64,000 nt of DNA, from the NCBI GenBank assembly GCA_018897195.1, contig JAHILH010000004.1, positions 19,182 to 83,181 of the forward strand. The letters run 5' to 3'. Positions 20,581-49,044 of this stretch are shown piece by piece (the stretch's first letter is position 1; each line of letters opens with the position of its first letter). The stretch is from Patescibacteria group bacterium (GTDB lineage Bacteria > Patescibacteriota > Patescibacteriia > Patescibacteriales > UBA12075). Both the position numbers and the translations under genes were made by a program. Under the pieces are notes generated by a model. That model was not told the DNA's origin. It did no database searches and was given only the letters and a program-made list of their open reading frames with translations.

Positions 20581-22064
<1,484 letters not shown>

Positions 22065-31901: not shown

Positions 31902-31907
31902 ATTATT

Positions 31908-33038
31908 TTAAAACGGTTTTATTATTTTAAAACTTTTATTTCTTATTTCATTTATATGAACACCGTCACAGTCCTTGTCCATGACGCATTTCTGACATCT
32001 TATGCTTTTTACAAAATATCTATTTTTTATATAAAATTCCGTAAATTCATTTATATCAAGACTCGGACTGAACTTAGCAACCCCTGTTTGCATGGTTGTC
32101 GCTCTTTGACATTTTGCCCTTGCCTTAGGCCCAAGCACCCCTATAGTTCTTAGCTTAATTAAATCCTTGCAAAAATCATTCATATAACAAATGTCGCATC
32201 TTTCTCCATGACAGCTCATCAGTCGGCCAACCTTAATATATTCTAAAAATTGTTGTCTCATGCCCAGCACATCATCATTTAGCTTATGCGGACTTTGTAT
32301 CAACCACTCATAGTTCTCCAAGTTGCGCGCCGGCCATCTATTGGTCCACAAATGCACGCCTTCTATTTTTGAGAATTCCCAGGCCTTGTCGAGATATTTC
32401 TTTGCCCCTCCATAATTAAAAAAAAGTTTTTTTCGATTGTGCCAAGCCTGACCGAATGGAACAAGATAAAGAATATCAAACTCATACACCCCCAACTTTA
32501 TAAAAAAATTCAAAGTTTGGGATAAAGTTTTATAATTCAATTTTGTTACCACGATATCAATACTAACAATCAGATTATGTGCGATAACATTCAATAATCC
32601 TTTCATGGTCTGCTCATAAACACCTTTTACGCCAATAATCTCTTCAAGGATCTGCTTGTTGTGACTATGCAGAGAAACAGTCACCTCATCTAGTCCGGCT
32701 TTTTTTAACTTCTCGGCAAAATCGTCATAAGCAAACATTCTCCCATTACTAATCATTTGTACATGGGTATAACCGATTTTTTTTGCCTGACTAATTATTT
32801 TAACCACATCCGGATGCAAGGTTGGTTCTCCCCCAGAAATTATCACCCGCTTAGCACCACCAAGAAATCCAGATTTCAATTCTTTTACAATCTCCTCATA
32901 AGCAATTGATGTTCCATCTTGGTTGCCTGTATCATGACAAAAAAGACAATTGTTATTACAAACTTTTGTCACCCTAACCCAGTGTCTTTTTTCTTCCGCC
33001 ACCAAGTCTCTTAAAATAAGATCTTCTTGTCTACTCAT
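31908..33038 (-). CDS. radical SAM enzyme (paralog group A, Cys-rich C-terminal extension)
   Basis: 376 aa. VCNNNCLFCHD, SGGEPTLHP, ISNGRMFAY, SLHSH. C-terminal clusters CHGERCDICYMNDFC and CQKCVMDKDC. Confidence 0.75.
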   Translation of the reverse strand: MSRQEDLILRDLVAEEKRHWVRVTKVCNNNCLFCHDTGNQDGTSIAYEEIVKELKSGFLGGAKRVIISGGEPTLHPDVVKIISQAKKIGYTHVQMISNGRMFAYDDFAEKLKKAGLDEVTVSLHSHNKQILEEIIGVKGVYEQTMKGLLNVIAHNLIVSIDIVVTKLNYKTLSQTLNFFIKLGVYEFDILYLVPFGQAWHNRKKLFFNYGGAKKYLDKAWEFSKIEGVHLWTNRWPARNLENYEWLIQSPHKLNDDVLGMRQQFLEYIKVGRLMSCHGERCDICYMNDFCKDLIKLRTIGVLGPKARAKCQRATTMQTGVAKFSPSLDINEFTEFYIKNRYFVKSIRCQKCVMDKDCDGVHINEIRNKSFKIIKPF

Positions 33039-33922
33039 TTTTTTATCGGTTTAAATTCTTTCCAGCCAAATTTTTCTGGATATTCTCGCCAAGTTCCTTC
33101 ACAATATTTATAATGCTTACATTTATTACAGTTCGGCCCTTTTAATTTGCCCTCAGTAATTCGATATTTCTTATAATCTTCAATTTCCATCTGGTAATCA
33201 TAAACCATCGAATCAAACTGAATATTTTCCGCCACATATTCCTCATAACCTGTCATAAAACAAAATGGAATCGCCTCTGTCATTGCGGCAACTTTGAAAT
33301 GTTTAGCAATATCTAATCCCTTTTTTACATAAGGCATTACCAAGCTCATTCTTGGCACAACCATATCAAAATTTCGCTCCGCCGACCCCACGGCATGCAC
33401 AAAGGCAAATTGAAACTGAGCAACACCAAGACTAACTAGTAATTTAGCTATTTCCGGCAAGTGGCGGTAGTTGGACTTAACCACAACCACATTAATCATA
33501 ACCTTCTGTTTCAGCTGTACTAAATTTCTAATACCAGCCACAGTCTGATGAAAACTATCACTCCCGGTCAACCAATTATGCAACTCCGGTGTATGTCCAT
33601 GCAAAGCAAGGGCGAATTCATTAACACCAAGCGCTATCATTTTCTCACAAAATTCTGTATAGGCAAACATCCGACCATTAGTCTGCATCTGAATGATCTT
33701 ATAACCACTCTTTACAGCCAAGGCCACTAGGCCCTCGATTCCTTTTTTTATTGTCGGTTCGCCACCAGTAAAGACAACGCCATCACAGTCCTTGCTACCA
33801 GCTACAATATTCTTTTCAATCACCTCTAAAGAAATGTCGCCAAATTGTTTTTTATGTCCCTGGACACAAAAAACACAATTATTATTGCACAAAAATCCTA
33901 TTTTGATATCCGCTTTTTTCAT
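33035..33922 (-). CDS. radical SAM enzyme (paralog group A)
   Basis: 295 aa. LCNNNCVFCVQ, TGGEPT, QTNGRMFAY, ALHGH, IPFCFMTGYE, C-terminal CNKCKHYKYC. ATGA overlap with the next gene. Confidence 0.75.
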   Translation of the reverse strand: MKKADIKIGFLCNNNCVFCVQGHKKQFGDISLEVIEKNIVAGSKDCDGVVFTGGEPTIKKGIEGLVALAVKSGYKIIQMQTNGRMFAYTEFCEKMIALGVNEFALALHGHTPELHNWLTGSDSFHQTVAGIRNLVQLKQKVMINVVVVKSNYRHLPEIAKLLVSLGVAQFQFAFVHAVGSAERNFDMVVPRMSLVMPYVKKGLDIAKHFKVAAMTEAIPFCFMTGYEEYVAENIQFDSMVYDYQMEIEDYKKYRITEGKLKGPNCNKCKHYKYCEGTWREYPEKFGWKEFKPIKK

Positions 33923-33934
33923 AATTCAATCTAT

Positions 33935-34690
33935 TTAAAAAATATCTATAAATTGTACCTCTTTTATTTTAAAAATACCAACTTTTTCCAAATATTTTTT
34001 GGGCATTTTTTCTACTTCAATATTTAAAAAATCTTTATCCCTGGCTGCCACGATGGCCTCCAATAACAAATCGGCATAAGCCGAAAAATCAACAACAAGC
34101 CAAGAGTTGTCCAATATTCGCCCCTCTGGAACTAATCCGGAAAATTTAATACCCCTTACATTGTTTTGATGCAATAACTCAACTATGTCCAACAAGTATT
34201 CGTGGTTTAATGATGTAATAACAATGTTTACGGCCAAATAATGAGTATGCTTTAAAATATTTTGAATACCTCGCATGGTCATACCATGGCTACCAATGAC
34301 ACCCGTAATTAAATCATGTTTCTCTGCTCGAAAATCATGAAAACTTGTTCTCATCATAAAGCGATTCAAATCAATGTTTTTAAAAAAATCTTGCGCATAA
34401 TTAGAGTCAGAAAATTTAACACAGTTTGTCGCCATTGTACACGAAAAACCCTCCTTCTGGGCATAAATAACAGCCTCTTTTAAATACGGAAAAACTGTTG
34501 GCTCTCCGCCAAAAAAATCAATCTTCTGATAGCCACGCGTCTTGGCAAAACTAATTTGCTCTTTTACCTCCTTATAAGAAAACAACTCCCCTTTTGCCAA
34601 ATTTTCTTTTTCCATGCAAAATAAGCAATTCAAATTACACTTATTCAAACGGATAATATAGGCCATCTCTTTTTCTTTAATAGTCTTCAT
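33935..34690 (-). CDS. radical SAM enzyme (short)
   Basis: 251 aa. KCNLNCLFCME, FGGEPT. 4-nt overlap with the upstream PP-loop gene. Confidence 0.7.
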   Translation of the reverse strand: MKTIKEKEMAYIIRLNKCNLNCLFCMEKENLAKGELFSYKEVKEQISFAKTRGYQKIDFFGGEPTVFPYLKEAVIYAQKEGFSCTMATNCVKFSDSNYAQDFFKNIDLNRFMMRTSFHDFRAEKHDLITGVIGSHGMTMRGIQNILKHTHYLAVNIVITSLNHEYLLDIVELLHQNNVRGIKFSGLVPEGRILDNSWLVVDFSAYADLLLEAIVAARDKDFLNIEVEKMPKKYLEKVGIFKIKEVQFIDIF

Positions 34691-35409
34691 TTTTTTACTC
34701 TTCGAGCCTTTATGATATTTAATTCATAGCCCTGTCTTGATGTCACCACCTCGCTCTTATTAATAACAATTTTTTCCTTAAAAAAGGGAGCATCAACAAC
34801 CAAGGTATGATACTCGCCCTTGTCGCCACAATAATCAATACCGTTTGTCTTACTTAAATATTCAAAAAAAACATTATCAACTTCCCTGCCAAGCCACTCT
34901 CGACCAATATATATTGGTTTAACCGCAGTAATAATAATTTTTAATCCTGAATCAATGATTGCGCGTAAAACATTTTTGGAATTTTTTTTATAATTTGGCA
35001 AAATTAATTCCATATTTAATTTCTTTGTAACATCTACCAGAAGCTTATCCTGATAATCGCCAGACAGAATATAACCAAAAACAACGCCATCAATGCCTTT
35101 CTTTTTTAAAGATGAAAAAATGGCAAAAATTTGTTTTTCAAATAACTCTTTATCAACTCTCTGATGAGCTACGCTTTTTTGCATAATTGGCAGGCCAATT
35201 GAACGCGCCTGTAATTTCACTAACTCCTTGCCATAAGCATGAAAGCTCACTCTGCCCTCATTGTTAATTAAGTTTAAAAAACCTACAACTTCAAAATTGT
35301 CATTAAGACAAGACTGATAAGCAAACAAACCATCCTTGCCGCCACTAATAACGCTTATTAATTTTTTAACAGGTTTTACTCCCTTTATGTTTTTGACATT
35401 TTTTATCAT
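34687..35409 (-). CDS. Dph6/MJ0570-like PP-loop ATP pyrophosphatase (ATP_bind_4 family)
   Basis: 240 aa. PP-loop variant SGGKDG, then the ...H......L...QA.S.GLP... and GVVFGYILSGDYQ pattern typical of the diphthine-ammonia ligase family. Confidence 0.6.
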   Translation of the reverse strand: MIKNVKNIKGVKPVKKLISVISGGKDGLFAYQSCLNDNFEVVGFLNLINNEGRVSFHAYGKELVKLQARSIGLPIMQKSVAHQRVDKELFEKQIFAIFSSLKKKGIDGVVFGYILSGDYQDKLLVDVTKKLNMELILPNYKKNSKNVLRAIIDSGLKIIITAVKPIYIGREWLGREVDNVFFEYLSKTNGIDYCGDKGEYHTLVVDAPFFKEKIVINKSEVVTSRQGYELNIIKARRVKK

Positions 35410-36502
35410 CTAACTTGTTCTTATTTTTTATTATTTTGCTTGACCCGATCATAACATCTGCTATTTTACAAAAGTTTTTAAAATATTCGAGAAAGTTTTT
35501 TCCATTATAAACTGACCAAAGGTACAGGGGTAAGGGATTAGCGCAAATATATCCGTATTCACATGTTTGACACTTATCATCAACAGCTTTAGTTAATTTC
35601 AAAAATAACAAATCAAATAATTTTTTTCTTTTTTCTAAATCAATTTTTCCGGCATCGCCAATAATAAACCCCTTACGGTCCTCTTCTTTTAGCGGAAGCA
35701 CCCATTCAAAAAAATAAAAATTTCCATCTGCTCCCAATAATATTTTTGCATAATGAGATGAGCCCCAGAGACGATTAAGTAATCGAAAGTTAATTTTATC
35801 ATTATCGTTATATTTTTTAATGACAACTCCTAGTCTTTTCTTTAATTTTCTTACATCGACCTCACTCCACAACGTAAGCATTTGCGGAAACAAGTCAATA
35901 TAAGGAAAATTATTGCTCGTCATGAAGTTGACATTCTCTTCCAAGTGACCAACTTCAGACGGAGAAATTGTTGAAATAACCCTCATTGAACATTTCCTTT
36001 TTTTATTCAAGGAAAAATTTTTAAAATTCTTCCAGGCTAAATCAAAAGAATTTACTCCATCCCCGCCCCTAGTTTTCCGATGAGCGCCGTGGCTCTTAGC
36101 ACCACCATCCAAGCTAAAATTAATTGTAAATCGTTCGTCCATTTTGCTGACGAAATCTTGCATTTTTTTGTCAAAGGCAACTCCATTGGTAGTTGCAACA
36201 ACTGAAATATTTATCCCCTTCTCCGCTGCTCGCTTAAAGATGTAATTGACTGAACTCACAAAAAGATCTGGATAAATAAAAGGCTCGCTCGTCGTAAAAG
36301 TTATTGTCTTATCATTACCTGATAATTCATAAAAAGTATCAATAGCCTTTTCAATTGTTTTATAGTCTAATACTGATTCGCTTGTTTTGTTCACGAAACA
36401 ATAATCACAATCCAAATTACATTTTTCACTAAAACAAATATCCATCTGCGAGGGATGGGAAATTTCATTATTAAAAACATTTTCTTTTTTTAAATTATTC
36501 AT
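35366..36502 (-). CDS. radical SAM enzyme, anSME/SPASM-like
   Basis: 378 aa. EKCNLDCDYCF. C-terminal CQTCEYGYIC (CxxCx5C) partial SPASM/twitch-like cluster. Confidence 0.7.
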   Translation of the reverse strand: MNNLKKENVFNNEISHPSQMDICFSEKCNLDCDYCFVNKTSESVLDYKTIEKAIDTFYELSGNDKTITFTTSEPFIYPDLFVSSVNYIFKRAAEKGINISVVATTNGVAFDKKMQDFVSKMDERFTINFSLDGGAKSHGAHRKTRGGDGVNSFDLAWKNFKNFSLNKKRKCSMRVISTISPSEVGHLEENVNFMTSNNFPYIDLFPQMLTLWSEVDVRKLKKRLGVVIKKYNDNDKINFRLLNRLWGSSHYAKILLGADGNFYFFEWVLPLKEEDRKGFIIGDAGKIDLEKRKKLFDLLFLKLTKAVDDKCQTCEYGYICANPLPLYLWSVYNGKNFLEYFKNFCKIADVMIGSSKIIKNKNKLDDKKCQKHKGSKTC

Positions 36503-36509
36503 ATTTTTC

Positions 36510-37604
36510 TTAAAAACACCGCGCCTTAATAGCCGCCTGAATAGCGCTCTTGTCGTACTTATTTTTCTCTATCTTTTTTCTAAAATACTTCACCGCCTCA
36601 ATGGTGGCTAAATAATAGTATCGCCTAACTATATGCGCGTGATCATTATTAATAACTCCACCATAATATTCCCTCTCACATTTTTGACATTCTTCCCTGG
36701 TTATATCAAACGAACATTTCTCATATTTTAAAAATTTTTTCTCCTTCAGGTTAGCAATAACAAACTTTTTTTTATCATCGCGATTAAGCAAAAAGGGTGA
36801 GAAGGCCACCTCCCCACTTGGATAAACCTCTAGCGTATGCTGGAATGGACACGCAACGCCTTGTAAGCCGCCTATAAACTGTCGATCAAACTCCCAGTTA
36901 ACAGGATTGATATAAAATTTTGGCATACCGTTTGTACCAATATTCTTCAAAAATTCTTTTAACACTTTCTCATATCCCCTAATAAAATTATCCTGATATT
37001 CCTTTGTCCAGTCCTCAAATTCTTGCACTATTTCAAAGTTAATATTATCACTAACCCCAAGTGCAAGCAAGTCTGTGAAATAGTCGTATATTTTTTTACT
37101 TTGCGAAGGAATTATAACAAATGAGATACCTATATTCTGAAGAGGAATTTTTTTTCTCAATTTTAATAAATTAGCCAAGACAACGTCATAAGTACCACTA
37201 CCCCCTTTGAAAAAACGATACTGATTATGATTTTTTTTGTCACCAGCTAGGCTAACCGAAATTTTAATATCATAAGTTTTTATAAAAGCGATCAAGTCAT
37301 CATCTAAAATCGTTAGGCTGGTAGCCACGGAAATAACTAGTTTTTTCTTATTCTCTATGGCTAAATCAAAGGCATATTGCACAATATTTTTAAAAAGCGC
37401 TATTTCCAAAAAAGGCTCTCCTCCATAAATAGACAATAGCTTTTCTTCGCCCTGAGACTCAATAAGTAAATCAACCGCCGCCCTAGCCACCGACAACGGC
37501 ATAACTTCATTTGTTTTTTTAACAAAACAATAATTACAGTCAGCATTACAGCTCGTTGTTAAAGCTAATTTAATTTTACGAACATTTTTATTATTAAATT
37601 TCAT
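36510..37604 (-). CDS. radical SAM enzyme, anSME-like
   Basis: 364 aa. TSCNADCNYCF, YGGEPF. C-terminal Cys (CPF..., C..DITREECQKC). Confidence 0.7.
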   Translation of the reverse strand: MKFNNKNVRKIKLALTTSCNADCNYCFVKKTNEVMPLSVARAAVDLLIESQGEEKLLSIYGGEPFLEIALFKNIVQYAFDLAIENKKKLVISVATSLTILDDDLIAFIKTYDIKISVSLAGDKKNHNQYRFFKGGSGTYDVVLANLLKLRKKIPLQNIGISFVIIPSQSKKIYDYFTDLLALGVSDNINFEIVQEFEDWTKEYQDNFIRGYEKVLKEFLKNIGTNGMPKFYINPVNWEFDRQFIGGLQGVACPFQHTLEVYPSGEVAFSPFLLNRDDKKKFVIANLKEKKFLKYEKCSFDITREECQKCEREYYGGVINNDHAHIVRRYYYLATIEAVKYFRKKIEKNKYDKSAIQAAIKARCF

Positions 37605-37608
37605 AAAT

Positions 37609-38535
37609 CTACAACCGTATATAAAAAGTCACTACGCCATCATCTTCAATGGCCAAGATTACCAGGCGAGCATTAATGCCTCGAAAGACATCCCTAAACG
37701 TTTCCTTATTATACTCACATCTCATTATAGTCAAAATTTCTTCAATTAAATCCAAGGTTTCTTTCTTGTTTAAATATAGGTCATCTAAAAATTCCAAATA
37801 TAATTTTTTTCTACCTACGCCTAGTCCTCCTTTTTTGTATCGCTCGCTGGCAAAAAACCAATACTTATGCTCGCTTTTAAGCAATCCTATTAATTCACCA
37901 ACAATTCGCCTTTCCTCGCTATTCATCTGATGATAATTATCTTTATTTAAAAAATAATAAATCTTGTAATAGAGATCATTATTGTCAATATCAAATCCAA
38001 TATTTAAAATATTTTGAGTAATTTCAAAACTGGGATTAAACCCTAGTCGTTTAAAAAGTTTATCGATTATCTCAACAGAGTTCTTTTTTAAATTTATTTT
38101 GCCACTTCTCAAAGCTCCACCCAAGATAAGCCAAATTGCAAACTGATAATCTTCATTTTCAATATCTGCCCCAATATAAACATCCATGGGGTCATCAGAA
38201 ACGGACTTCAAGGCCTCGTGGAGTGTGTCGAGCTGAAGATTAATATTATTTTTTTGAAAAATATCAAAATAACTATCTAGTCTTTTTAAATAGGCGCCTT
38301 TATTGCGATAAGAATACGCTTTACTATCCAAATTTAAAAGACGCATTTTACTATCATCTTTTATAGCCTTGTTAAACTTAAAAGACAGTTCAAACTGAGT
38401 CAAGCCTAAACTGTCTATCGCAAAAATATCTCCAACAAAAGAGTTAAGATTGGATTTTGTTGTCTTGGAAAGTTTTAAACTTTGACAAAACAAATTTATA
38501 TTTTCTACTATCTCCCTTTGATGATCATCCAACAT
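37609..38535 (-). CDS. hypothetical cytoplasmic protein (no motif recognised)
   Basis: 308 aa. Tightly packed between an rSAM gene and a secreted Cys-rich protein gene. Has recurrent beta-strand-like Y/F-rich segments (YYKIYYFL, KLYLEFL, VTFYIRL). Confidence 0.5.
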   Translation of the reverse strand: MLDDHQREIVENINLFCQSLKLSKTTKSNLNSFVGDIFAIDSLGLTQFELSFKFNKAIKDDSKMRLLNLDSKAYSYRNKGAYLKRLDSYFDIFQKNNINLQLDTLHEALKSVSDDPMDVYIGADIENEDYQFAIWLILGGALRSGKINLKKNSVEIIDKLFKRLGFNPSFEITQNILNIGFDIDNNDLYYKIYYFLNKDNYHQMNSEERRIVGELIGLLKSEHKYWFFASERYKKGGLGVGRKKLYLEFLDDLYLNKKETLDLIEEILTIMRCEYNKETFRDVFRGINARLVILAIEDDGVVTFYIRL

Positions 38536-38549
38536 CGTTTAAAATATTA

Positions 38550-39608
38550 TCAATCCTTAGAAAAAATCGCCAAACACTCTTCGTGCATAATTTTATTATC
38601 TGAGTCTCTTTGTGGAATTTTTTCACATAACTGCTGGTCTTTTTTTTCTTTGACGGCGTCAAGGGCATATTTTTCATAACAAAAATTGTCGTGAAAAAAA
38701 TTATTTACCTCAGTCTTCAAATTATAATCATCATCCATGTTTAAGACAATACAATATTCACGCATAAATCTATCGTTAATCATGTCACAAATCCCCTTGT
38801 CAGAGGTCTTGGAGGCTTTTGATAAATAAACAGTCGACTGGCAACGCTTTTCCGCCCTCTCGGCCTCTAATTTACAGCCGATAGTACCGCCGTCGTCTTG
38901 CTTGCTCTTAATACAATCATTTGCGGCAATGCTTCTGTCAAAGACGCACATATCAGGATTTCCCGCCGCCATCGCAAAACACAATTTCTTGTCATATTGA
39001 TCGTTAACAAGATTGCAATGATCTGCCGAGCCGTCAACAAGCGCCAACACTATTAATTTAGCATCATCTGTCAAATTGCTAATAACTTTATCACTATAAT
39101 CTTTCAAAGACACCAACTTATAGTAAAATGAGTTGCAATTTTCCATTAATTCTTTTGAAAAAGAATTGCAATTATTATTATCCCTAGCAACCAACATGCG
39201 AATCATGGCATAATTATAGTACTCATCACCACTAAAATAGTCAGGTGTATTTTGAGAAAAAAAATCGGCAGCTAAGCAGATATTCAAATCGTTAAATTTC
39301 GACGACGGTTCCTTTTCTAATGTAGCCGGGTTTAAGCCATTGCCCAGGACTGATGGTTTTACAAATTTTAGAAAATCTGCATCAGTTGGATTTGGGGAAA
39401 TTACATCATCAGAAGCTGGCGCTTGGCAAGCAGCACCATTATTATTACTATCACTGCTCGGGCTCCACGGTAAGGATAAAATTAACCCAGAAAGCGCCAC
39501 ACCTGGACTAATATGATTCTTCCAGGCGTAACTAAAGACTAAAATTATAACGGAAAGATAGGTCAATGACACGACCAATAATAAATAAAAAAGAATTTTT
39601 TTGAGCAT
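38550..39608 (-). CDS. secreted/membrane-anchored Cys-rich protein (hypothetical)
   Basis: The ATG at 39608 (MLKKILFYLLLVVSL...) is preferred because the 39647 start overlaps the precursor gene. N-terminal TM/signal and about 16 Cys in the mature part. Confidence 0.55.
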   Translation of the reverse strand: MLKKILFYLLLVVSLTYLSVIILVFSYAWKNHISPGVALSGLILSLPWSPSSDSNNNGAACQAPASDDVISPNPTDADFLKFVKPSVLGNGLNPATLEKEPSSKFNDLNICLAADFFSQNTPDYFSGDEYYNYAMIRMLVARDNNNCNSFSKELMENCNSFYYKLVSLKDYSDKVISNLTDDAKLIVLALVDGSADHCNLVNDQYDKKLCFAMAAGNPDMCVFDRSIAANDCIKSKQDDGGTIGCKLEAERAEKRCQSTVYLSKASKTSDKGICDMINDRFMREYCIVLNMDDDYNLKTEVNNFFHDNFCYEKYALDAVKEKKDQQLCEKIPQRDSDNKIMHEECLAIFSKD

Positions 39609-39637
39609 ATTTATAATTTGTAAAAAATAACAACCTA

Positions 39638-39829
39638 CTAGCACCAACCACCTTCACTGTGTGAGCCATGAGAGGCGTGAGAGGCGTGAGAGGCGTGAGA
39701 AGCGTGAGAACAGTGCTGTGAATGAATACATAATTGTGCATTTGCGTCATGAACCTGCGCAACACCGCCGAGCATGGCGGCGACACCAATCAGGGCCAAT
39801 CCCATCTTCGCGCCATTTTTCTCCACCAT
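39638..39829 (-). CDS. hxsA: His-Xaa-Ser repeat precursor peptide (HxsA-like)
   Basis: 63 aa from the ATG at 39829 (GAGGAGGG SD 4 nt upstream): MVEKNGAKMGLALIGVAAMLGGVAQVHDANAQLCIHSQHCSHASHASHASHASHGSHSEGGWC*. Sits next to paired rSAM/SPASM genes. Confidence 0.75.
   Translation of the reverse strand: MVEKNGAKMGLALIGVAAMLGGVAQVHDANAQLCIHSQHCSHASHASHASHASHGSHSEGGWC
39656..39724 (-). repeat. 9-bp (3-codon) tandem repeat encoding the H-x-S units
   Basis: agaggcgtg occurs 3 times perfectly (39671-39697) with degenerate units on both sides. It is in frame within the precursor CDS. Confidence 0.85.
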
Positions 39830-39910
39830 TTTTCCCTCCTCGCTAAGAAGGAAGGTTTTTAACTCTTTTTTAATTTTTGGTAATTTTTGAGACTTATTTT
39901 TCATATGTAT

Positions 39911-39939
39911 ATTTTAACACATTAAAAACTTTTAATCAA
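39911..39939 (-). promoter_or_regulatory. internal promoter upstream of the precursor (TTGATT-N17-TAAAAT)
   Basis: Minus strand reads ttgatt aaaagtttttaatgtgt taaaat, in the 114-nt gap after the upstream rSAM stop. Confidence 0.45.
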
Positions 39940-39943
39940 CTTA

Positions 39944-41083
39944 CTAGAATCTATATGTTTTAATAAATTTAGCGTTCAATTCCAATTCTTTTTTTATAGA
40001 CAGGAATGTCTTAATGTAAATTTTTGAGATAAAACAATAATTCTCCCAGTGACTGTCGCCATCATTGTGTTGATAATAAATATAATGGCCGACGGGACAA
40101 AAACAATATTTGGCGTAATGACAGCGAGCACAGCCTAGTCCGCTATTTTTTAAAAAACCATTTCTAAGCTCTAATAACAAATCCGCTCTTTTCTCGTCAT
40201 CCAGTCCAGCCTCTGCACTGCCAACGATATATGTTGAGCGTTCAGCCTTTTTTAAAGAAAGCACCTTGTCGCATACATAAAAATCTCCATCGATATTAAG
40301 ATTTATTTTATTACATTGCCTTGCCTTATCAAGATTTACTTCATTAACAAAGCTGTCTAATAAATTGTTCTTAAAAACATCTCCCCCAACGTCAAATAAG
40401 CCAATATAATACTTTTTAAATTCCTTAAAAAAATTGACCAAGTGCCCTAAATCATCACTACTCCACGTGGCGTACAAATCCGGTAAAAAATTAATGACAG
40501 AAAACTTCTTGGCGTGTAAAAATTTTATATTCTGCATCAAAGTCTTTATGTCACGCGGTGCAAAAACCAAGGAAGAGGTTATGCCTGACTGGTAAACGTC
40601 TATACTGTTTATATTTTTAAAAATCAACTCAAAACTAGAATTAGCAGATTCTTTTAAAGGGCGATTAGCGTCGTGACAATTCTTATCTCCGTCAATGCTT
40701 ACCTGGATGTTAATTTTATTTTTTTTAAAAAACTCAATTTTATCTATATCCAAAAGCGTTCCATTGGTTGCCAATTTATAGCTAAGAGAAATTTTTTTCT
40801 CCTTAGCTTTATTTGTGGCATACTGATAGACTCTTTTTATTAATGAAAATTCTACAAGGGGCTCGCCACCCAAAAAATTAATCATTTTTTTCTGCCCCGG
40901 ACCGTCCAATAAAATATCCACCGCTTTTCTAATCAGTTCCTCATTAAGGGTAGAATCTCCGTCGTCGGATCGGTCAACAAAACAATATTTGCAATTCAAA
41001 TTGCACTTGCCGGTAAAGAACAGATTTAATACTGATGGGTTATTATTTAACATCCTCCTCATGTCTTTCAAACCATTTTTCAA
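39944..41083 (-). CDS. radical SAM/SPASM enzyme (HxsC-like by size and context)
   Basis: 379 aa. GKCNLNCKYCF, LGGEPL, C-x8-G-x4-C (CNKINLNIDGDFYVC) and CARCHYAKYCFC. Start is ambiguous (41083, 41062 or 41053). Confidence 0.7.
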   Translation of the reverse strand: MKNGLKDMRRMLNNNPSVLNLFFTGKCNLNCKYCFVDRSDDGDSTLNEELIRKAVDILLDGPGQKKMINFLGGEPLVEFSLIKRVYQYATNKAKEKKISLSYKLATNGTLLDIDKIEFFKKNKINIQVSIDGDKNCHDANRPLKESANSSFELIFKNINSIDVYQSGITSSLVFAPRDIKTLMQNIKFLHAKKFSVINFLPDLYATWSSDDLGHLVNFFKEFKKYYIGLFDVGGDVFKNNLLDSFVNEVNLDKARQCNKINLNIDGDFYVCDKVLSLKKAERSTYIVGSAEAGLDDEKRADLLLELRNGFLKNSGLGCARCHYAKYCFCPVGHYIYYQHNDGDSHWENYCFISKIYIKTFLSIKKELELNAKFIKTYRF

Positions 41084-42503
41084 ATATTTTACGATATTTT
41101 TTATTTTTAAGTTTCAAAAATAAATAATCAAACATAGCCTTATTCATCTTGCAACGATCAGTGTTTGATAATTGTGGAAACAATGTCCCATATTCCATGA
41201 AATTAATTAAAGGACAAGTGCCACAATACGGCTTATAAGCACAATTCATGCAACTCACATGACCATCAAGAACCGACGACAAACAAGTAGTCTTTGTCAC
41301 ATCATTGTCTATCAGGTCATTATATCGACTCTCGTTTACGTTACCAATCTGAAAATTATCATATCCCATTTTCTTTGCCATTCTGCCTTCATCGCAAGTA
41401 TAGACTCTTCCATCATAATCAAAGGCCATCTGGCCTATGCCGGCGCCACATGGGGAACGCATCTCCAAATAACCGGAGTCCGTACCTTGTAATACTTTTT
41501 TAAGTGCCAAAAATGACATTCTTTCTACAAACAATAGTCCCTCCGAATTTAATTTTAAAATATAGTCCATCGCCTCCTTATAAAAATCAATAAAATCCTC
41601 GATTTTATAGCCTATCACATCAATGTGTTGCTTTGCCAAACCGATTGGACTCAAGGGCCGCAAAAAAATATTCGTAAAATCACATTTTATATATTCATCA
41701 ATTATTTCCTTGGCATGTGGCAAAGAAAAGCGACTTACGGTTAAAATGGCATTCAACCTATCAATATGTTTTTCCTCGGACTTTTTTCTATTCAGCTTTA
41801 TAACCCCCTGAATGTATTTAATTTTTTTAACAACCGCATCATAGCTATTACCATCTTCTAAATATACCCTATTTTTATTATGAATATTTTTTGGTCCATC
41901 AAAAGAACAACTAATATTCACTCTATTCTCCTCTAAAAATTTCATCTTCTCTTCATCAATCAGTGTTAAATTAGAGACCAGGCTGATTTTTAAATCCTTT
42001 TTAACTTCCTTGTTTAGCTCCCGTGCGTATTTAACGATAAACTTTAAAACTGGCCAATTCAAAAGAGGCTCCCCTCCCTGCAACTCAATGCCAATTCCTT
42101 GCGATGGGGTATTAAACAGCACGTCAATAGTTTTCTTGGCCGTAATCTGTGTCATGTTATAACCGTTAGATTGATGACTCTCAGGCGTCGCCTGACAGTA
42201 AAGACAGCGATGATTACACCTGGCGGTCAGCACGAGAATAAACAAGCTCGGCCCGCTCATGGCAGACTGATTCATTCTGAGATATTCACCAGCCAAATCT
42301 AATATTTTCTTATCGTCTGTTTTGTAAAATCCCTTTACGACTAATTCATTTTTGACTTCTTTTTTAGCGATATCTTTTCCACCCACAAAATCATCAAAAT
42401 CACTTTGACCTAAAATCATCCAACCGCCACTGGCGCTTGTCAACAGAACATCTTTGCCAATATTTCTAAATCTAAAAAATGCCAAATTATTGTTTTTCGT
42501 CAT
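41043..42503 (-). CDS. radical SAM/SPASM enzyme (HxsB-like)
   Basis: 486 aa. N-terminal FRFRNIGKDVLLTSASGGWMIL...DF domain, ARCNHRCLYCQ, QGGEPL, and a full SPASM pattern: CGAGIGQMAFDYDGRVYTC ... CMNCAYKPYCGTC ... C. Confidence 0.75.
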   Translation of the reverse strand: MTKNNNLAFFRFRNIGKDVLLTSASGGWMILGQSDFDDFVGGKDIAKKEVKNELVVKGFYKTDDKKILDLAGEYLRMNQSAMSGPSLFILVLTARCNHRCLYCQATPESHQSNGYNMTQITAKKTIDVLFNTPSQGIGIELQGGEPLLNWPVLKFIVKYARELNKEVKKDLKISLVSNLTLIDEEKMKFLEENRVNISCSFDGPKNIHNKNRVYLEDGNSYDAVVKKIKYIQGVIKLNRKKSEEKHIDRLNAILTVSRFSLPHAKEIIDEYIKCDFTNIFLRPLSPIGLAKQHIDVIGYKIEDFIDFYKEAMDYILKLNSEGLLFVERMSFLALKKVLQGTDSGYLEMRSPCGAGIGQMAFDYDGRVYTCDEGRMAKKMGYDNFQIGNVNESRYNDLIDNDVTKTTCLSSVLDGHVSCMNCAYKPYCGTCPLINFMEYGTLFPQLSNTDRCKMNKAMFDYLFLKLKNKKYRKIFEKWFERHEEDVK

Positions 42504-42508
42504 ACATA

Positions 42509-42721
42509 TTATTTTACGCTTAAAAAAAGAGCGTAATTTTTAAACTCATTACTTATACCCGCTACATCATCAACAACGGGTAATTCAACCTCATAATACT
42601 TTGGGGTATTTTTCAATAAAATCTTCTCCTTACTGATCCATGAAAATTCGCTCATTGTCGTTTTGATAGCGCCTTCACTATAAATAGCCTTATTAAATTT
42701 TAATAAATTTTTTTCTTTCAT
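42509..42721 (-). CDS. small protein, HxsD-like candidate
   Basis: 70 aa. N-terminal F-N-x-x-I-Y-S-x-x-A-I motif shared with 42733..43182. Lies directly upstream of the HxsB-like gene. Confidence 0.4.
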   Translation of the reverse strand: MKEKNLLKFNKAIYSEGAIKTTMSEFSWISKEKILLKNTPKYYEVELPVVDDVAGISNEFKNYALFLSVK

Positions 42722-42732
42722 CTTATTAAAAA

Positions 42733-43182
42733 CTAAATAATTTTTTTAATATTCAAAGAGTCTGACTCATAATCACCGCCATCGATTTTTTCTAGTTCCT
42801 TTTTTAAAGCCTCGATTTCTTTTTCAACATCCATAACTTCATTGTCATTGTTAATGGGCTCCTTTTTTTCCAGTGCTGCCGAAATTGCTCCACCAACAAT
42901 GTATTCAATAACTTTCTTGTTTTGCTTTACCAAGTCTTCTCTTAATATTGTATTAAGTAATTCATTGCTAAACTCGCCTTTAATTTTTTCCAAATCTTTT
43001 TTACTTAAAATATCTTTCCCCTTCAAAACAACTAAGATTTCATCCTTGCTTGGCTTATCTAAATAAACATACACTCTATCAATAAAAACATAGCAGGTTT
43101 TCATTATTATGGCCTGCGAATAAACACTGGTTTTTACATTAAAGCTGATTTCATTATTCTCTATTTTCATTTTAATCTTCAT
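42733..43182 (-). CDS. HxsD-like candidate with acidic coiled-coil tail
   Basis: 149 aa. ISFNVKTSVYSQAIIMKTCYVFIDRVYVYL resembles the HxsD pattern as I remember it (unverified). Confidence 0.4.
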   Translation of the reverse strand: MKIKMKIENNEISFNVKTSVYSQAIIMKTCYVFIDRVYVYLDKPSKDEILVVLKGKDILSKKDLEKIKGEFSNELLNTILREDLVKQNKKVIEYIVGGAISAALEKKEPINNDNEVMDVEKEIEALKKELEKIDGGDYESDSLNIKKII

Positions 43183-43207
43183 AGTTTTGATTATTAATTC
43201 TAAAGTT

Positions 43208-43236
43208 AATTTAGCACAGCATTGCTATTTTGTAAA
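43208..43236 (-). promoter_or_regulatory. candidate internal promoter (TTTACA-N17-TAAATT, TGTG-extended)
   Basis: Minus strand reads tttaca aaatagcaatgctgtgc taaatt, in the 93-nt gap between the UbiA-like and HxsD-like genes. Confidence 0.35.
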
Positions 43237-43275
43237 CGACAACGAATTAAATTGCAACGGAGGTTTCTTCATCAA

Positions 43276-44796
43276 TTAAGAAGAAAATATATACGAAAAA
43301 ATAAATGCAAGCCAGGAACTTAAATATAATACGAATATCTGTTTTTCCTTATACACTTTTTTATTAACCAAATAAAATTGCCACAAACCAGCCAAAATAG
43401 ACAGTACTAAGAAATAAATATTATTAACAACAAAATTAAATAATAAATAATTAATAAGAAAAAAAAGCCCAATTATTATTTTTGAATTTTTTAATCCGAA
43501 AAAGACCGGCAAGGTTATAATACCCTCTTTTTTATCCCCCTCATAATCTTTAATATCAATAAATTGAATAGCGGCCGTAAAACCAATTAAAAATATCAAA
43601 ATTATTAACCTTGGAAATGTTTTTAAGTCTGGTAAAAAATAAGAATACCCCATGAATATCAAAACCAAAGAATTTAAAGAAATTAATAATTTTGAAAAAA
43701 AGAAAACCCGCTTCAATCGTAATGGCGGCATTGAATATAGGAAATAATTTCCGATGAACAAAACTTGATAAAACAAACTCTTATACCCGTTCAAGCTGGC
43801 AAAAAATAAAGATAGGGCAAGGGCAACCCAGGCTAATTTCTTATAAAAATCTAAACTGATTTTTCCTTGCACCAACGGCCTGTCCGTGTTTGATATTTTG
43901 TCAATATTATAATCAATTATATCGTTTGTAATCCCAGAGAACAACAGACCAAAAATAATGCCCATGGCGGAAACAAAGATCATGTCAGGACGCAACACGG
44001 CAAGGGCATCATTAACGCCAATTTGCATCGCACCAATGATAATGCCGAAAAAAAACATTAAAAAATAATGCACCTGTCTTGAAAATCTGGAATCTCCAAT
44101 AATTATTTTAAACTTTTCTTTTTCAAAAAGGAAAAATAAAATTACCAACAACAAAATACTGAACACGGAAAAATAATTAATAAGAACATTGGTCATTACA
44201 ACAAAACAATCATAAATTCTACAATACGGCAACACGATAAACGGTGTAGCGGCAAAAAGAAAAAATATATTATAGGCAAAAAACAGACCCATCATTGATC
44301 TCAAAACACTCTTTGTTTTTAAAATAAAATAAAAAAAGATTAACAATAAAAAAATACCAGCCTCGACTTTCAAACCAGGCGTAATCCCATTTTCAAAAAA
44401 CTTACCGACTGGAAAAAAATATCGATAAATTAAATTAGTATCGACTCCTGGTATTAAATAATCCATATTTAAACCTGCCCCTCTACTGACAACTAAATCA
44501 ATTAAAGGCGGGAGCAAGATTAAGCCGAATGAATGCAAGGCGATATTAATAATTTTCTTAAACGACTCCCTGGTAATAATTCTAATTAAAAAAATGAAAG
44601 ACAAGGCTATGGCTGGAAAAAACATAACAAAATGCAAGTGCATTTCTCGGGAAAAAAGATTGTCAGTGTCAGCAAATGATTCCAAAAAAACCCTCAACAA
44701 GATAATAAAAAGAAAAGATAAAAAATGATAAATAGAAATATTTATATTTTCTATATGATCCACCACTCTTTTGAAGAGCTGCCACGCACTATGCAT
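43276..44796 (-). CDS. UbiA-family prenyltransferase fused to a large N-terminal polytopic membrane domain
   Basis: NDIIDYNIDKISNTDRPL (NDxxDxxxD) and DIKDYEGDKKEG (DxxxD) in the C-terminal half, with ~15 TM segments. The ATG at 44796 avoids an 80-nt overlap with the YcaO gene. Confidence 0.7.
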   Translation of the reverse strand: MHSAWQLFKRVVDHIENINISIYHFLSFLFIILLRVFLESFADTDNLFSREMHLHFVMFFPAIALSFIFLIRIITRESFKKIINIALHSFGLILLPPLIDLVVSRGAGLNMDYLIPGVDTNLIYRYFFPVGKFFENGITPGLKVEAGIFLLLIFFYFILKTKSVLRSMMGLFFAYNIFFLFAATPFIVLPYCRIYDCFVVMTNVLINYFSVFSILLLVILFFLFEKEKFKIIIGDSRFSRQVHYFLMFFFGIIIGAMQIGVNDALAVLRPDMIFVSAMGIIFGLLFSGITNDIIDYNIDKISNTDRPLVQGKISLDFYKKLAWVALALSLFFASLNGYKSLFYQVLFIGNYFLYSMPPLRLKRVFFFSKLLISLNSLVLIFMGYSYFLPDLKTFPRLIILIFLIGFTAAIQFIDIKDYEGDKKEGIITLPVFFGLKNSKIIIGLFFLINYLLFNFVVNNIYFLVLSILAGLWQFYLVNKKVYKEKQIFVLYLSSWLAFIFSYIFSS

Positions 44797-44806
44797 AATT
44801 TTATAT

Positions 44807-46609
44807 TTATTTATAAAAACTAAAAATGAGTTTTCTAAGATTAATTTCAAATTTTTTAGCGCAAGCATCGCCACAAGGTTTATCACACCAGGAAATGAGT
44901 GGATTTTTCACCGGTCTTTCTATCATAAACCGATAACACCCTTTAGCGCTAGCGAAATAATCCCTTGCCTCATTTATTTTTTGAGCTTTTATCAAAAAGC
45001 CTAATTTTTTGTAAAATTCAGAATTATCGGGATAAAAAGCGCCTAACAATTTCAACACTATTTTTAGTTTATCATATTTACCCAGAATAAAAAACAAAGA
45101 TGCTAACAGCTCATATAGATTAATCGAACGACCATAAAGACCGTTCGTCTTAATGTAAATATCACTGGGCCTAGACTTGATGTGGCTTTCAATTTCAGCC
45201 ATGAAGCGAGCTACCTCCACCTCAACAGATAACCATTTATTTGAAACGCGAAAATCATAAAACTCCTTGGGCCAATATTTTTCTATGGGCAAAATTACCC
45301 TATCAATGTTAAAGCCTTTCTCATATTCGGTATTTATCTCATCTGAGATACCTGGTATAACAATCCGCACGGCTGGAAATTTCAGAATAGGGTGAGTTTG
45401 ATCAATCACTATTAATTCCGTGTTCATTGATCGACAAATTAATTTTATTTGATCGACGTTTTTGGCAAAATCAAAATCAGACTCTTCACTCCAAATATCC
45501 TTCATATTAATTAAAGGCCCTTTTTCCAAGAAACCTAAATCTCCGGTGTAAATATTTTTTTTCGATAAATCTCTATAAGTATCCTCTGGTTCATAATCAA
45601 CTCCACCTTTTTTAAACCACTCTTTCCAAATAATATCTTGCTTGGAAAATTCTTTTAATTCATCAACGCCATCCACGCCCTGAATGTACGATGTAAAACA
45701 TCTCATAAGTGCCTCCCTATAATCAAATGCCACTTCAACGAACCAACGATAACCATTCTCTCTTTTACTAATAGGGTTCCTCTTATGGCTCAAGTTATCA
45801 TTAATAAACAAAACACCTAAACAAGGAAATTGTCCCTTGAAAGAGCAATCTTTTATAATCACTCTTATTTTGTTTTTGTAGAAAAATTTAATCAATCTCA
45901 GTATATAAAGATCATTAATAGATCCGACATTAATAGATGGTAAATTCTTTTTTTCTTTTACCGTTTTGTGCAAAATATATCTTTCAAAAATTTCATTTGC
46001 TCCATGCACAATGGCTTCCTCAATTGTATTGCCGGAAGCCAATCCATTTGTTCCCGAAATTCGGTGCACCAATCTCAGGGGCACTTTTATTTTTTTATTT
46101 CTCGTTACAGAATAACCATCAACCCAATGTTGTGACACTTCACTATCCTTGATTAAGCTTATTTCTTTTTCTGTTAATTTCTGTTTCTGGAAGATACTTT
46201 CTATAGCAAGAATCTCCCCCTCAGCCATCAGGGCCTGCTCTGTGTTTACATAACCTTTTAAATGAGAAAAATAATAAAACTTAAAATAATCAGCACTTTT
46301 AAGCTGCTCATGATTATCCTGGCTTAGGATGGGGAAAAAATTAAAAAACCCGCAAGAAATTCGTTCGGCAAGTTCAGCATAAGCACTAGCCTTGGCCAGT
46401 TCACTAGTAATACCCTTTCCGTTCACGGCATAATTCAAGGCTGGCACAACAAGGGCGCCTGAATACAGATTATCCTCATAAAACGTCATGGGGGTATATA
46501 GCACGTCTAGCCCTATTTTTTTTAAGCCTTCTTCTATTTTTTTAATTGTGGTTAAGGGATTTTCAGACTTAAAAGTAGTTCCATCCTTAAGACACTTTTT
46601 AATTTTCAT
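44807..46609 (-). CDS. YcaO-domain protein with C-terminal helical extension
   Basis: 600 aa. NGKGITSELAKASAYAELAERIS and SGTNGLASGNTIEEAIVHGANEIFERY match the conserved YcaO ATP/Mg-binding blocks. Confidence 0.75.
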   Translation of the reverse strand: MKIKKCLKDGTTFKSENPLTTIKKIEEGLKKIGLDVLYTPMTFYEDNLYSGALVVPALNYAVNGKGITSELAKASAYAELAERISCGFFNFFPILSQDNHEQLKSADYFKFYYFSHLKGYVNTEQALMAEGEILAIESIFQKQKLTEKEISLIKDSEVSQHWVDGYSVTRNKKIKVPLRLVHRISGTNGLASGNTIEEAIVHGANEIFERYILHKTVKEKKNLPSINVGSINDLYILRLIKFFYKNKIRVIIKDCSFKGQFPCLGVLFINDNLSHKRNPISKRENGYRWFVEVAFDYREALMRCFTSYIQGVDGVDELKEFSKQDIIWKEWFKKGGVDYEPEDTYRDLSKKNIYTGDLGFLEKGPLINMKDIWSEESDFDFAKNVDQIKLICRSMNTELIVIDQTHPILKFPAVRIVIPGISDEINTEYEKGFNIDRVILPIEKYWPKEFYDFRVSNKWLSVEVEVARFMAEIESHIKSRPSDIYIKTNGLYGRSINLYELLASLFFILGKYDKLKIVLKLLGAFYPDNSEFYKKLGFLIKAQKINEARDYFASAKGCYRFMIERPVKNPLISWCDKPCGDACAKKFEINLRKLIFSFYK

Positions 46610-46621
46610 TCCATTTAAATA

Positions 46622-47998: not shown

Positions 47999-48004
47999 AT
48001 TTTC

Positions 48005-48958: not shown

Positions 48959-49044
48959 TTTACCAATAGTAAATAATTTAAATTATTTAATAATTTTATT
49001 ACATTTTTTATTATTAATGATAAAAAATGAAGTTAAGTATTGTT

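Follow-up and report, generated by a model that had tools for sequence, protein, structure and literature searches.

The 64,000-nucleotide stretch of DNA analysed here (the window, on contig JAHILH010000004.1) comes from a Candidatus Parcubacteria metagenome-assembled genome of the candidate phyla radiation (CPR). We consider it probable that its segment 39944-43236 is the promoter-proximal core of a His-Xaa-Ser (Hxs) maturation operon of the HxsA4 type, with the gene identities and the architecture given below. Read on the minus strand, the order in the open reading frame (ORF) list is HxsD, a 70-amino-acid (aa) HxsD-like protein, HxsB, a 379-aa radical SAM enzyme with a SPASM domain and then an 88-aa precursor. 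An initial annotation of this DNA had reported these five genes. All were present on that strand and in that order, the precursor lying just outside the range it had marked. The cassette was also rightly called Hxs-type, as HxsD and HxsB pass the curated NCBIfam cutoffs, and it is indeed embedded in a much larger enzyme set. Compared with the canonical order D-B-C-A, the positions are kept and the third enzyme belongs to another family. All coordinates refer to the window, and L-numbers (L001-L102) label the contigs or loci of relatives that were compared.

The canonical HXS, the sole HXS to have been studied, is the antiphage system HxsD-HxsB-HxsC-HxsA (TIGR03976-TIGR03979; Li et al., Nat Commun 2026, PMC13128918). 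In the published survey, it consists of four genes in >99.8% of cases, and 99.7% of the systems are from Pseudomonadota (PMC13128918). The E. coli system blocks the entry of phage DNA, and its basic HRSHSSHRSH repeats were proposed to bind DNA; HxsC binds HxsD, and a mass change of +8 Da maps to one SHRSS unit (PMC13128918). The locus in the window resembles this system in its HxsB and HxsD, which pass their models, in its tandem His-x-Ser substrate, in the order from D through B to the substrate at the end, and in an HxsC-like core with a CX2CX5C-G tail that is present within the operon. However, no protein reaches the HxsC cutoff, a SPASM enzyme sits in the HxsC slot, and the HxsC-like enzymes are four in number, lack the N-terminal domain and lie 6-9 kb away. 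Further differences are the extra, truncated HxsD paralogue and the substrate itself, which has only 88 aa, a long conserved leader, non-basic repeats and no peptidoglycan-binding domain. The host is a CPR bacterium, and eight radical SAM enzymes are found instead of two, together with YcaO, Dph6-like and A24-like proteins.

About 50 loci were compared. Each was selected for a full-length HxsB (about 30-88% identity), for a precursor of the HxsA4 type or for a 379-type homologue, and the window proteins were mapped onto them by BLASTP. The loci represent CPR, Elusimicrobia, Omnitrophota, Spirochaetes, Oligoflexales, Planctomycetia and DPANN archaea, together with a small number of canonical-type loci of other bacteria. 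Metagenomes contain many HxsB homologues at 42-88% identity, and the named ones belong to Parcubacteria, Moranbacteria and other Patescibacteria. Among plasmid records, 588 contain an HxsB-like match, the annotated top matches being hxsB.

By its sequences, the locus is a member of the HxsA4-type branch already modelled by the NCBIfam curators. The precursor aligns over leader and repeats with HxsA4 and HxsA3, and HxsC4 (NF038332) is the best model for a 295-aa radical SAM enzyme of the operon, although the window proteins remain below the cutoffs (46.2 vs 55 for the precursor, 39.4 vs 41 for the 70-aa protein and 167.8 vs 500 for the 295-aa enzyme). The annotation of HxsB and HxsD and the NCBIfam models for the precursor type and for the HxsD-like protein are already known. 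No publication on Hxs variants in CPR or DPANN, and none on the variants behind the NCBIfam models HxsA4, HxsA3, HxsD-like and HxsC4, was found in the searchable literature, which excludes most subscription journals. The same literature does not describe the extended architecture with no true HxsC, four paralogues without the N-terminal domain, a GGWC-linked SPASM enzyme and an A24-type peptidase.

HxsB, HxsD and the HxsD-like protein

HxsB (486 aa, 41043..42503, minus strand) is a radical SAM/SPASM enzyme that matches TIGR03978 over its full length with 490.7 bits (cutoff 370), and the earlier HxsB assignment is upheld by this model. Annotated hxsD-hxsB-hxsC loci on plasmids of Aeromonas salmonicida and Nostoc served as references. 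The window protein is 35.6% identical to the annotated HxsB of Aeromonas and 33.7% identical to that of Nostoc, both over the full length. In a neighbor-joining (NJ) tree with reference sequences, the HxsB clade was recovered in 40 of 40 bootstraps, and NCBI already names the protein HxsB. The N-terminal sequence described in the initial annotation was seen again, HxsB beginning ...FFRFRNIGKDVLLTSASGGW. The SPASM motif called complete there shows the full Cys pattern and scores 22.5 bits with Pfam (cutoff 21.5). Residues 10-431 align with residues 8-417 of CteB (PDB 5WGG), a range that covers the CteB N-terminal domain.

HxsD (149 aa, 42733..43182, minus strand) passes TIGR03976 with 57.2 bits (cutoff 50), and an identical protein carries the NCBI name HxsD. 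Compared with canonical HxsD proteins (96-110 aa), it has a C-terminal acidic/coiled extension.

The HxsD-like small protein (70 aa, 42509..42721, minus strand) is annotated as hypothetical by NCBI and scores 39.4 bits on NF038315, 1.6 short of the cutoff of 41. In hhalign, its family is aligned to the N-terminal 75 residues of HxsD (probability 90%, E 1.6e-6), and 13 of 13 syntenic homologues match NF038315 (best E 1.3e-22). These matches bear out the earlier suggestion of a second HxsD-related protein, and we regard it as a truncated paralogue of the HxsD N-terminus. The pairwise BLASTP comparison of the 70-aa and 149-aa proteins was not significant (E=0.19), and the predicted homology of the two is seen at the profile level only. 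The motif F-N-x-x-[IV]-Y-S-x-x-A-I, described as shared by both, holds approximately: the 70-aa protein reads FNKAIYSEGAI, whereas the corresponding FNVKTSVYSQAII of the 149-aa protein requires indels. Immediately before HxsB, homologues of the 70-aa protein occur in loci of CPR, Spirochaetes, Oligoflexales and DPANN archaea, and the canonical reference loci leave no room for a gene of this type. A search of the representative library with the 70-aa query returned 7 matches, a count that does not measure the size of the family because so short and divergent a query is unsuited to a single-sequence search.

Upstream of HxsD, the candidate sigma-70-like promoter (43208..43236, minus strand) has the form TTTACA-17-TAAATT with an extended TG and a 9/12 match. 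Taken alone, this consensus match is weak, because the AT-rich region yields 25 such matches against 16.1 +/- 4.0 in shuffled sequences. In favor of the promoter, the closest relative (L087) has the same TTTACA and TG-n-TAAATT elements, whereas the spacer and the upstream DNA have diverged. As two sequences were compared, this conservation is suggestive and lends the promoter some support.

The 379-aa SPASM enzyme and the HxsC-like paralogues

The second SPASM radical SAM enzyme (379 aa, 39944..41083, minus strand) occupies the HxsC position and begins with TTG. The NCBI start is an ATG 10 codons later, which gives a protein of 369 aa. The TTG start at 41083 makes the gene overlap HxsB by 41 nucleotides (nt; 41043-41083), and the NCBI start reduces the overlap to 11 nt. 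The longer form is favoured because residues before the NCBI start (K3, N4, L6 and K7 of the consensus) are conserved in homologues.

The initial annotation had taken this enzyme for the HxsC-like member of the cassette, an assignment that did not survive comparison. NCBIfam places it nearest to PapB (NF047865; 165.5 bits against a cutoff of 340), with HxsB matched in part (150.6 bits, cutoff 370); it scores 136.6 bits against CcpM and E 3.8e-21 against CteB, and it remains below every curated cutoff. The HxsC model (TIGR03977) was outside the 25 listed NCBIfam matches, and as the weakest of these has 47.1 bits, the HxsC score must be below 47 bits (cutoff 267.9). No BLASTP match at E<0.01 to the annotated HxsC of Aeromonas or Nostoc was obtained, whereas HxsB was matched at 24% identity and E 1e-22. 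In the NJ tree with references, the HxsC-like superclade was recovered in 40/40 and the non-HxsB SPASM group in 39/40 bootstraps, and the 379-aa enzyme falls in the SPASM clade with the HxsB/PapB side, apart from HxsC. Scores below the cutoffs together with clustering among other SPASM families were therefore found for the 379-aa gene, while HxsB and HxsD pass their models.

The motifs point in the same direction. The enzyme has a radical SAM motif CX3CX2C (C27, C31 and C34), and the SPASM-like C-terminus noted earlier is present as a seven-Cys set (C257, C271, C318, C321, C327, C329 and C350) that is invariant in six homologues. This C-terminus argues against an HxsC identity, because HxsC lacks a seven-Cys SPASM domain. 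The enzyme resembles the Cys-thioether maturases PapB, CteB and CcpM in the CX3CX2C motif, in the seven-Cys SPASM domain and in a Cys-containing substrate tail, GGWC. Unlike CteB and HxsB, it has no N-terminal peptide-binding domain, its alignment to CteB beginning at CteB residue 99, and its last motif is CX2CX5CXC rather than CX2CX5CX3C. We place it, on these comparisons, on the SPASM/HxsB-PapB side and not among the HxsC-like enzymes.

The distribution of the enzyme bears on the same question. Homologues with more than 40% identity are restricted to closer relatives, in about 15 loci, and they sit between HxsB and the precursor wherever the contig includes the flank; the L092 contig starts at the homologue itself. 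The more distant HxsA4-type loci have no 379-type enzyme, and there the 295-aa type adjoins HxsB. If the 379-aa enzyme were nevertheless a divergent HxsC, the five genes would amount to a canonical D-B-C-A cassette, complete and with HxsD in duplicate, and the remainder of the operon would be an add-on. Its position in the HxsC slot of an order common to 99.6% of HXS systems (PMC13128918) and its fixed place in the cassette of about 15 related loci agree with this explanation. We consider it very unlikely, however, given a score of <47 against 267.9 bits outside the 25 best NCBIfam matches, the missing BLASTP match (E<0.01) to two annotated HxsC proteins when HxsB is matched at 1e-22, the seven-Cys SPASM domain absent in HxsC and a SPASM clade in 39/40 bootstraps. 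The distant loci, in which an HxsC-like enzyme of the 295-aa type stands beside HxsB and the 379-type is absent, also speak against it.

With the 379-aa enzyme set apart from HxsC, the HxsC-like members of the operon are four radical SAM genes at 30954-34690, 6-9 kb downstream. The 251-aa protein (33935..34690, minus strand) scores 67.2 bits on HxsC4 and 61.7 on HxsC, matches Nostoc HxsC at E 6.5e-9 and lacks the C-terminal Cys motif. The 295-aa protein (33035..33922, minus strand) scores highest on HxsC4 (167.8 bits against a cutoff of 500), ahead of HxsC (97.7 bits against 267.9), with 29% identity to Nostoc HxsC (E 6.5e-19). For the 376-aa protein (31908..33038, minus strand), HxsC is the best model with 117.2 bits (cutoff 267.9), and Nostoc HxsC is matched at 30% identity (E 5.9e-18). 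HxsC is likewise the best model for the 315-aa protein (30954..31901, minus strand), with 88.2 bits and a match to Nostoc HxsC at 28% (E 1.2e-17). No window protein reaches the HxsC cutoff of 267.9 bits, the maximum being the 117.2 of the 376-aa protein.

The HxsC alignments of the four paralogues start at about HxsC residue 113-123, so that the N-terminal domain of canonical HxsC, roughly 110 residues long, is missing from all four. The C-terminal CX2CX5C-G motif of HxsC is kept in the 295-, 315- and 376-aa proteins. A relationship of the missing N-terminal domain to HxsD or to the HxsD-like protein, which could have accounted for the additional small protein, was considered and rejected (hhalign probabilities 0.7% and 0.1%).

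Orthologues of the 295-aa type, with 43-64% identity, are found in nearly every surveyed HxsA4-type locus, directly beside HxsB in seven of them (L012, L013, L021, L027, L028, L029 and L041), and this type is the most constant partner of HxsB. The best 120 database matches of the family have 54-89% identity, nearly all 54-64%, and carry generic annotations. Ten HxsC-like partners in relatives score 115-180 bits on HxsC4, and none of the ten reaches the HxsC4 or the HxsC cutoff. The 295-aa enzyme is likely the functional counterpart of HxsC, as judged from these comparisons. The label HxsC, when given by position, should not spread to enzymes of the 379-aa type.

An all-against-all BLASTP comparison splits the eight radical SAM enzymes of the operon into a SPASM set (HxsB and the 379-, 364- and 378-aa proteins) and an HxsC-like set (251, 295, 376 and 315 aa). 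The 364-aa member (36510..37604, minus strand), placed in the SPASM clade by BLASTP clustering and by the tree, has a degenerate C-terminal Cys set. The 378-aa member (35366..36502, minus strand) is the closest paralogue of the 379-aa enzyme, with 28.6% identity over 367 residues (E 1.8e-37), and the two were grouped in 35/40 bootstrap trees. In two relatives, a single ORF directly after HxsB (L012:2177-3946, 589 aa; L021:11506-13293, 595 aa) joins a PapB/HxsB-like radical SAM core (about residues 6-190) to an HxsC4-like enzyme (about 295-535). These fusions indicate that the two enzyme clades are functionally linked.

Precursor, proposed maturation and role

The 88-aa precursor (39638..39904, minus strand) is of the HxsA4 type, scoring 46.2 bits on HxsA4 (NF038313, cutoff 55), 39.5 on HxsA3 (NF038309, cutoff 65) and 28.6 on HxsA (TIGR03979, cutoff 121.65). 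Its sequence is MKNKSQKLPKIKKELKTFLLSEEGKMVEKNGAKMGLALIGVAAMLGGVAQVHDANAQLCIHSQHCSHASHASHASHASHGSHSEGGWC. A leader with FLLSEEGK is followed by a hydrophobic segment, eight His-x-Ser units (HSQ HCS HAS HAS HAS HAS HGS HSE) and a GGWC end, the tail reading HSQHCSHASHASHASHASHGSHSEGGWC; no domain follows the repeats. The DNA under the repeats is a 9-bp tandem repeat of 4.6 copies. No second precursor-like ORF was found anywhere in the 64-kb window. The only terminator candidate after the precursor (39576-39561) is weak, with 5 pairs and a poor T run.

In the precursor family, a hydrophobic stretch, (S-H-G)n and in many cases R-G-G-W-C come after the leader K-x-P-x-I-K-K-[DE]-L-K-x-F-L-x-S-E-E-G-K; the leader motif in the locus' own precursor is K-L-P-x-I-K-K-E-L-K-x-F-L-x-S-E-E-G-K. 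Precursors of six relatives pass the HxsA4 cutoff with 62-111 bits (L003, L010, L013, L014, L019 and L020). Compared with these, the window precursor has fewer repeats and HAS instead of HGS. The other, canonical precursor type, with a Sec signal and HYSHRSHSSHRSH, was found in L026, L030-L032 and L034.

The end of the precursor goes together with the presence of a SPASM enzyme. A non-HxsB SPASM enzyme lies within 300 nt of the precursor in 13 of the 15 non-duplicate cases that end in GGWC, and it does so in 0 of 8 with other ends (SY, SW, QW or AY; Fisher p about 9e-5, uncorrected for relatedness). One cluster (L102) contains three precursors (1431-1706, 9959-10312 and 10367-10765): the GGWC-ended one is beside a 379-like enzyme and a 597-aa YcaO, and the two SY-ended ones follow HxsB. 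This arrangement suggests two sub-pathways in one cluster. In L097 (66-538), short fragments of HxsB and of a 379-type enzyme precede an intact GGWCD-ended precursor near a second 379-like gene, which looks like a decayed cassette or a misassembly.

A candidate for removal of the leader is encoded downstream. The 316-aa A24-like (GxGD-type) polytopic membrane protein (30011..30961, minus strand) scores 18.0 bits on Pfam Peptidase_A24 (PF01478; cutoff 26.5), and 9 of 11 homologues match this family at E<=0.01 (best E 4.1e-11). D21, N29, W80, D84 and K86 (DxxxxxxxN and WxAGDAK) are invariant in 11 homologues, including those of CPR, Spirochaetes, Omnitrophota and DPANN, and the protein is conserved in 10 or more loci of bacteria and archaea. 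NCBI labels it a 'FUSC family protein'; from its family matches and motifs, we assign it to the prepilin-peptidase type and not to FUSC, and it is a candidate for a dedicated leader peptidase. It shares with A24 prepilin and archaeal preflagellin peptidases both catalytic-type Asp motifs and a substrate with a charged leader directly before a hydrophobic segment. Unlike the A24 systems, it has no linked pilus assembly genes, and the leader of about 35 aa is longer than typical class III signals.

From these components we infer a series of enzymatic steps; they are inferences because Hxs chemistry is known no further than the +8 Da shift. Each step taken individually has at best about an even chance of being right, and some have a good deal less. 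The leader would be held by the CteB-like N-terminal domain of HxsB, by HxsD and the HxsD-like protein, or by both. HxsB may be able to hold the leader itself, because its alignment to CteB starts at residue 10 and so includes a domain that we take, from the CteB structure, to be peptide-binding. HxsD and the HxsD-like protein could serve as adaptors for the radical SAM enzymes without such a domain, and they are the natural candidates because the other seven enzymes lack it. HxsB and the HxsC-like enzymes would carry out radical chemistry on the His/Ser units. The PapB/CteB-like 379-aa enzyme may act on the Cys of GGWC, most likely with a thioether-type cross-link, because its nearest relatives form Cys thioethers and because its presence tracks GGWC. 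YcaO and a Dph6-like ATP pyrophosphatase, whose genes are described below, could add ATP-dependent backbone or carboxylate chemistry. The modified peptide would then be inserted into or exported across the membrane, where the A24-like peptidase would remove the leader, most plausibly at K-M-G | L-A-L before the hydrophobic segment. The K-x-[G/A/T] junction at this place is conserved in the precursor family.

Several points weigh against this reading of the locus. Curated cutoffs are reached neither by the precursor nor by the HxsD-like protein nor by any HxsC-like protein, and the window's own A24-like protein is below that of Pfam. What is known of the chemistry of the Hxs enzymes ends at the +8 Da shift seen in E. 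coli (PMC13128918). The GGWC correlation includes no correction for phylogeny, and L038 and L097 are partial exceptions in which the 379-like gene lies 0.8-1.6 kb off. An A-x-A-like site followed by Cys after the hydrophobic segment would allow ordinary signal peptidase processing as an alternative. The H-A-S/H-G-S repeats contain no Arg or Lys, unlike the basic E. coli repeats, and the flanks are housekeeping genes here, against the plasmids common for canonical HXS. Lipoprotein-type processing was considered as well and rejected: A-A-C occurs in several relatives, but the sites of the window (A-Q-L-C) and of L001 (S-Q-T-C) fit no lipobox.

By analogy with E. coli, the peptide could form an envelope barrier to the entry of phage DNA. 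We hold this role as tentative and distinctly below an even chance, because the repeats are non-basic, there is no peptidoglycan-binding domain, the context is chromosomal and housekeeping, and the system is strongly conserved in small-genome lineages. The product might instead be no defence effector but a secreted or surface-exposed His-rich peptide, for example for metal binding or acquisition, or for attachment and host contact of an episymbiotic CPR or DPANN cell, with which the proposed maturation is compatible. This alternative comes not far short of an even chance. It agrees with a mature region of (S-H-G/A)n without basic residues, with a chromosomal locus that has housekeeping flanks and no mobile-element genes, and with the presence of an A24-type peptidase and of a pilin-like layout of leader and hydrophobic segment. 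The system is also kept across CPR, DPANN, Elusimicrobia and Omnitrophota, with the 295-aa enzyme 54-64% identical. Against it, the sole experimentally established role of an HxsB/HxsD-dependent product is antiphage (PMC13128918), and the operon has no linked genes for metal transport or adhesion.

A wider proposal is that the HxsA4-type operons in CPR, in DPANN archaea and in a number of further uncultured phyla represent an undescribed class, in which a pilin-like His-rich peptide is heavily modified on (Ser-His-Gly/Ala)n by two radical SAM families (up to eight enzymes per operon), on GGWC by a SPASM enzyme and sometimes by YcaO, loses its leader to an A24-type peptidase and ends membrane-anchored or displayed on the surface. 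We advance this with low confidence. If true, the peptide could function in envelope defence, in the handling of metals or in contact with a host, and it would be so central that genomes of roughly 1 Mb retain it. The use of about 20 kb of about 1-Mb genomes for the operon suggests that its product is important to the biology of these cells. Apart from this proposal, the locus belongs to a large sister branch of HXS in bacteria and archaea with ultra-small genomes, in which HxsB and HxsD are kept and HxsC is replaced by paralogues without the N-terminal domain. The additions of this branch are a SPASM enzyme, putatively specific for the Cys tail, a second, HxsD-like protein as a putative adaptor and an A24-type peptidase. 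Such natural variants by subtraction and addition may help to assign enzymes to the steps of His-x-Ser maturation.

Upstream genes, remaining components and flanks

The cassette is part of an array of about 17-22 co-directional genes; counted from 49899 down to 27936 they number about 22, and no gap between them exceeds 93 nt. The largest gap, of 93 nt, is the one between the UbiA and HxsD genes, directly upstream of the 149-aa gene. In addition to the eight radical SAM enzymes, the operon encodes the Dph6-like ATP pyrophosphatase and the A24-type membrane peptidase homologue, and the YcaO gene lies just upstream. The complete gene order is kept in the closest relative, which comes from a different sample and has an HxsB with 88% identity (L087). 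In the NCBI annotation of identical proteins, only HxsB and HxsD are named, and the rest are 'radical SAM protein' or 'hypothetical'. PADLOC (2023), which has no Hxs models, gave only generic viperin-type radical SAM matches.

The initial annotation had pointed to a linkage of the cassette with YcaO, U32 and UbiA genes, and the survey of relatives separated the three: YcaO recurs, U32 does so occasionally, and UbiA is seen only in L087. The YcaO-family protein (600 aa, 44807..46609, minus strand; Pfam YcaO E 1.2e-42) has homologues with 75% and 47% identity inside Hxs-type clusters (L087 and L102), and a 420-aa YcaO lies between the 295- and 376-types in L007 and L088. Homologues at 39% and 35% identity have unrelated contexts. 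YcaO is likely an accessory of the pathway.

The membrane prenyltransferase of the UbiA family (506-536 aa, 43276..44886, minus strand; Pfam UbiA E 3.6e-29) stands beside an Hxs cassette elsewhere only in L087 among the surveyed loci, and its membership of the system is doubtful. The only Hxs neighbourhoods with a CruF-like gene were likewise those of this genome or of L087. Membership is uncertain for the U32-family protein (317 aa, 48005-48958, minus strand), assigned by its family match, and for a 458-aa protein (46622-47998, minus strand) with a Cys-rich N-terminal domain and a class I methyltransferase domain. The N-terminal domain of the latter (270 aa) contains a Cys cluster (C183, C188, C196, C202 and C206) and has no family match. 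Its counterpart in L087 is a 263-aa protein that consists of the N-terminal domain alone, without the methyltransferase, and lies beside the U32 gene; the domain is a possible partner subunit for the U32 protein. The block of U32, 263-aa, YcaO and UbiA genes is conserved only in L087. U32 genes near HxsB occur in L010 and L014, and also in L016 and L035, where U32 has a methyltransferase as its neighbour.

On a rival view, the array would be a mosaic, in which a small Hxs cassette by chance adjoins radical SAM, YcaO, U32 and UbiA pathways that are unrelated to it, such as cofactor or lipid/quinone synthesis, and that do not act on the precursor. The UbiA and CruF-like genes beside Hxs only here or in the closest relative, the conserved promoter-like site between UbiA and HxsD, and the YcaO homologues of 39% and 35% identity in unrelated contexts would fit such an arrangement, as would the resemblance of U32, methyltransferase and UbiA to quinone-type chemistry (best matches UbiU and UbiG, at low scores). 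For the downstream genes, on the other hand, the radical SAM, Dph6-like and A24-like genes are seen together with HxsB and HxsA4-type precursors across many phyla and in rearranged orders, which argues for their functional linkage. The two radical SAM clades are fused in single proteins of L012 and L021, YcaO is within the clusters in three lineages, and the window has no other precursor-like ORF. We consider the mosaic unlikely.

Under the preferred reading of one HxsA4-type operon, the Dph6-like ATP pyrophosphatase (240 aa, 34687..35409, minus strand) is a candidate amidating or adenylating enzyme. It matches Pfam Diphthami_syn_2 at E 7e-35 and TIGR03679 with 125.4 bits (cutoff 197), and its gene is conserved in L003, L087, L095 and L096. 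A conserved 308-aa protein (37609..38535, minus strand) has no family match and is the first of a four-gene module: in the same four loci, its homologues (39-78% identity) lie beside homologues of the 364- and 378-aa enzymes, with the Dph6 homologue adjacent or nearby. The membrane-anchored Cys-rich protein (352-365 aa, 38550..39647, minus strand) also has no family match, and homologues with 25-61% identity follow the precursor in L001, L007, L008 and L087-L093. At the end of the operon, a 441-aa secreted protein (28661-29986, minus strand) contains repeats of the form C-x-S-x-x-N-x-C-G-x-x-x-S-G-x-I-x-C-x-G-x-C-S, and short proteins resembling these repeats were seen near the clusters of L003 and L011. 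No usable Pfam or NCBIfam match was obtained for the 365-, 308-, 441- and 234-aa proteins or for the N-terminal 270 aa of the 458-aa protein.

The locus is chromosomal, and no mobile-element genes were found in its surroundings. The flanking genes are housekeeping genes: 16S rRNA, tRNAs, UMP kinase, YifB, RecA, SMC, ribosomal protein S1 and YchF. The G+C content of 30000-50000 is 0.31-0.37, below that of the flanks (mostly 0.37-0.41). At 19738-22064, five tRNA genes (Ile, Phe, Met, Pro and Gly) come after the 16S rRNA gene, and as the 23S rRNA gene is absent from the window, the rRNA genes are unlinked. The UMP kinase (50496-51179, plus strand) passes the archaeal-type model TIGR02076 with 178 bits (cutoff 158) and not the bacterial model, although the genome is bacterial.

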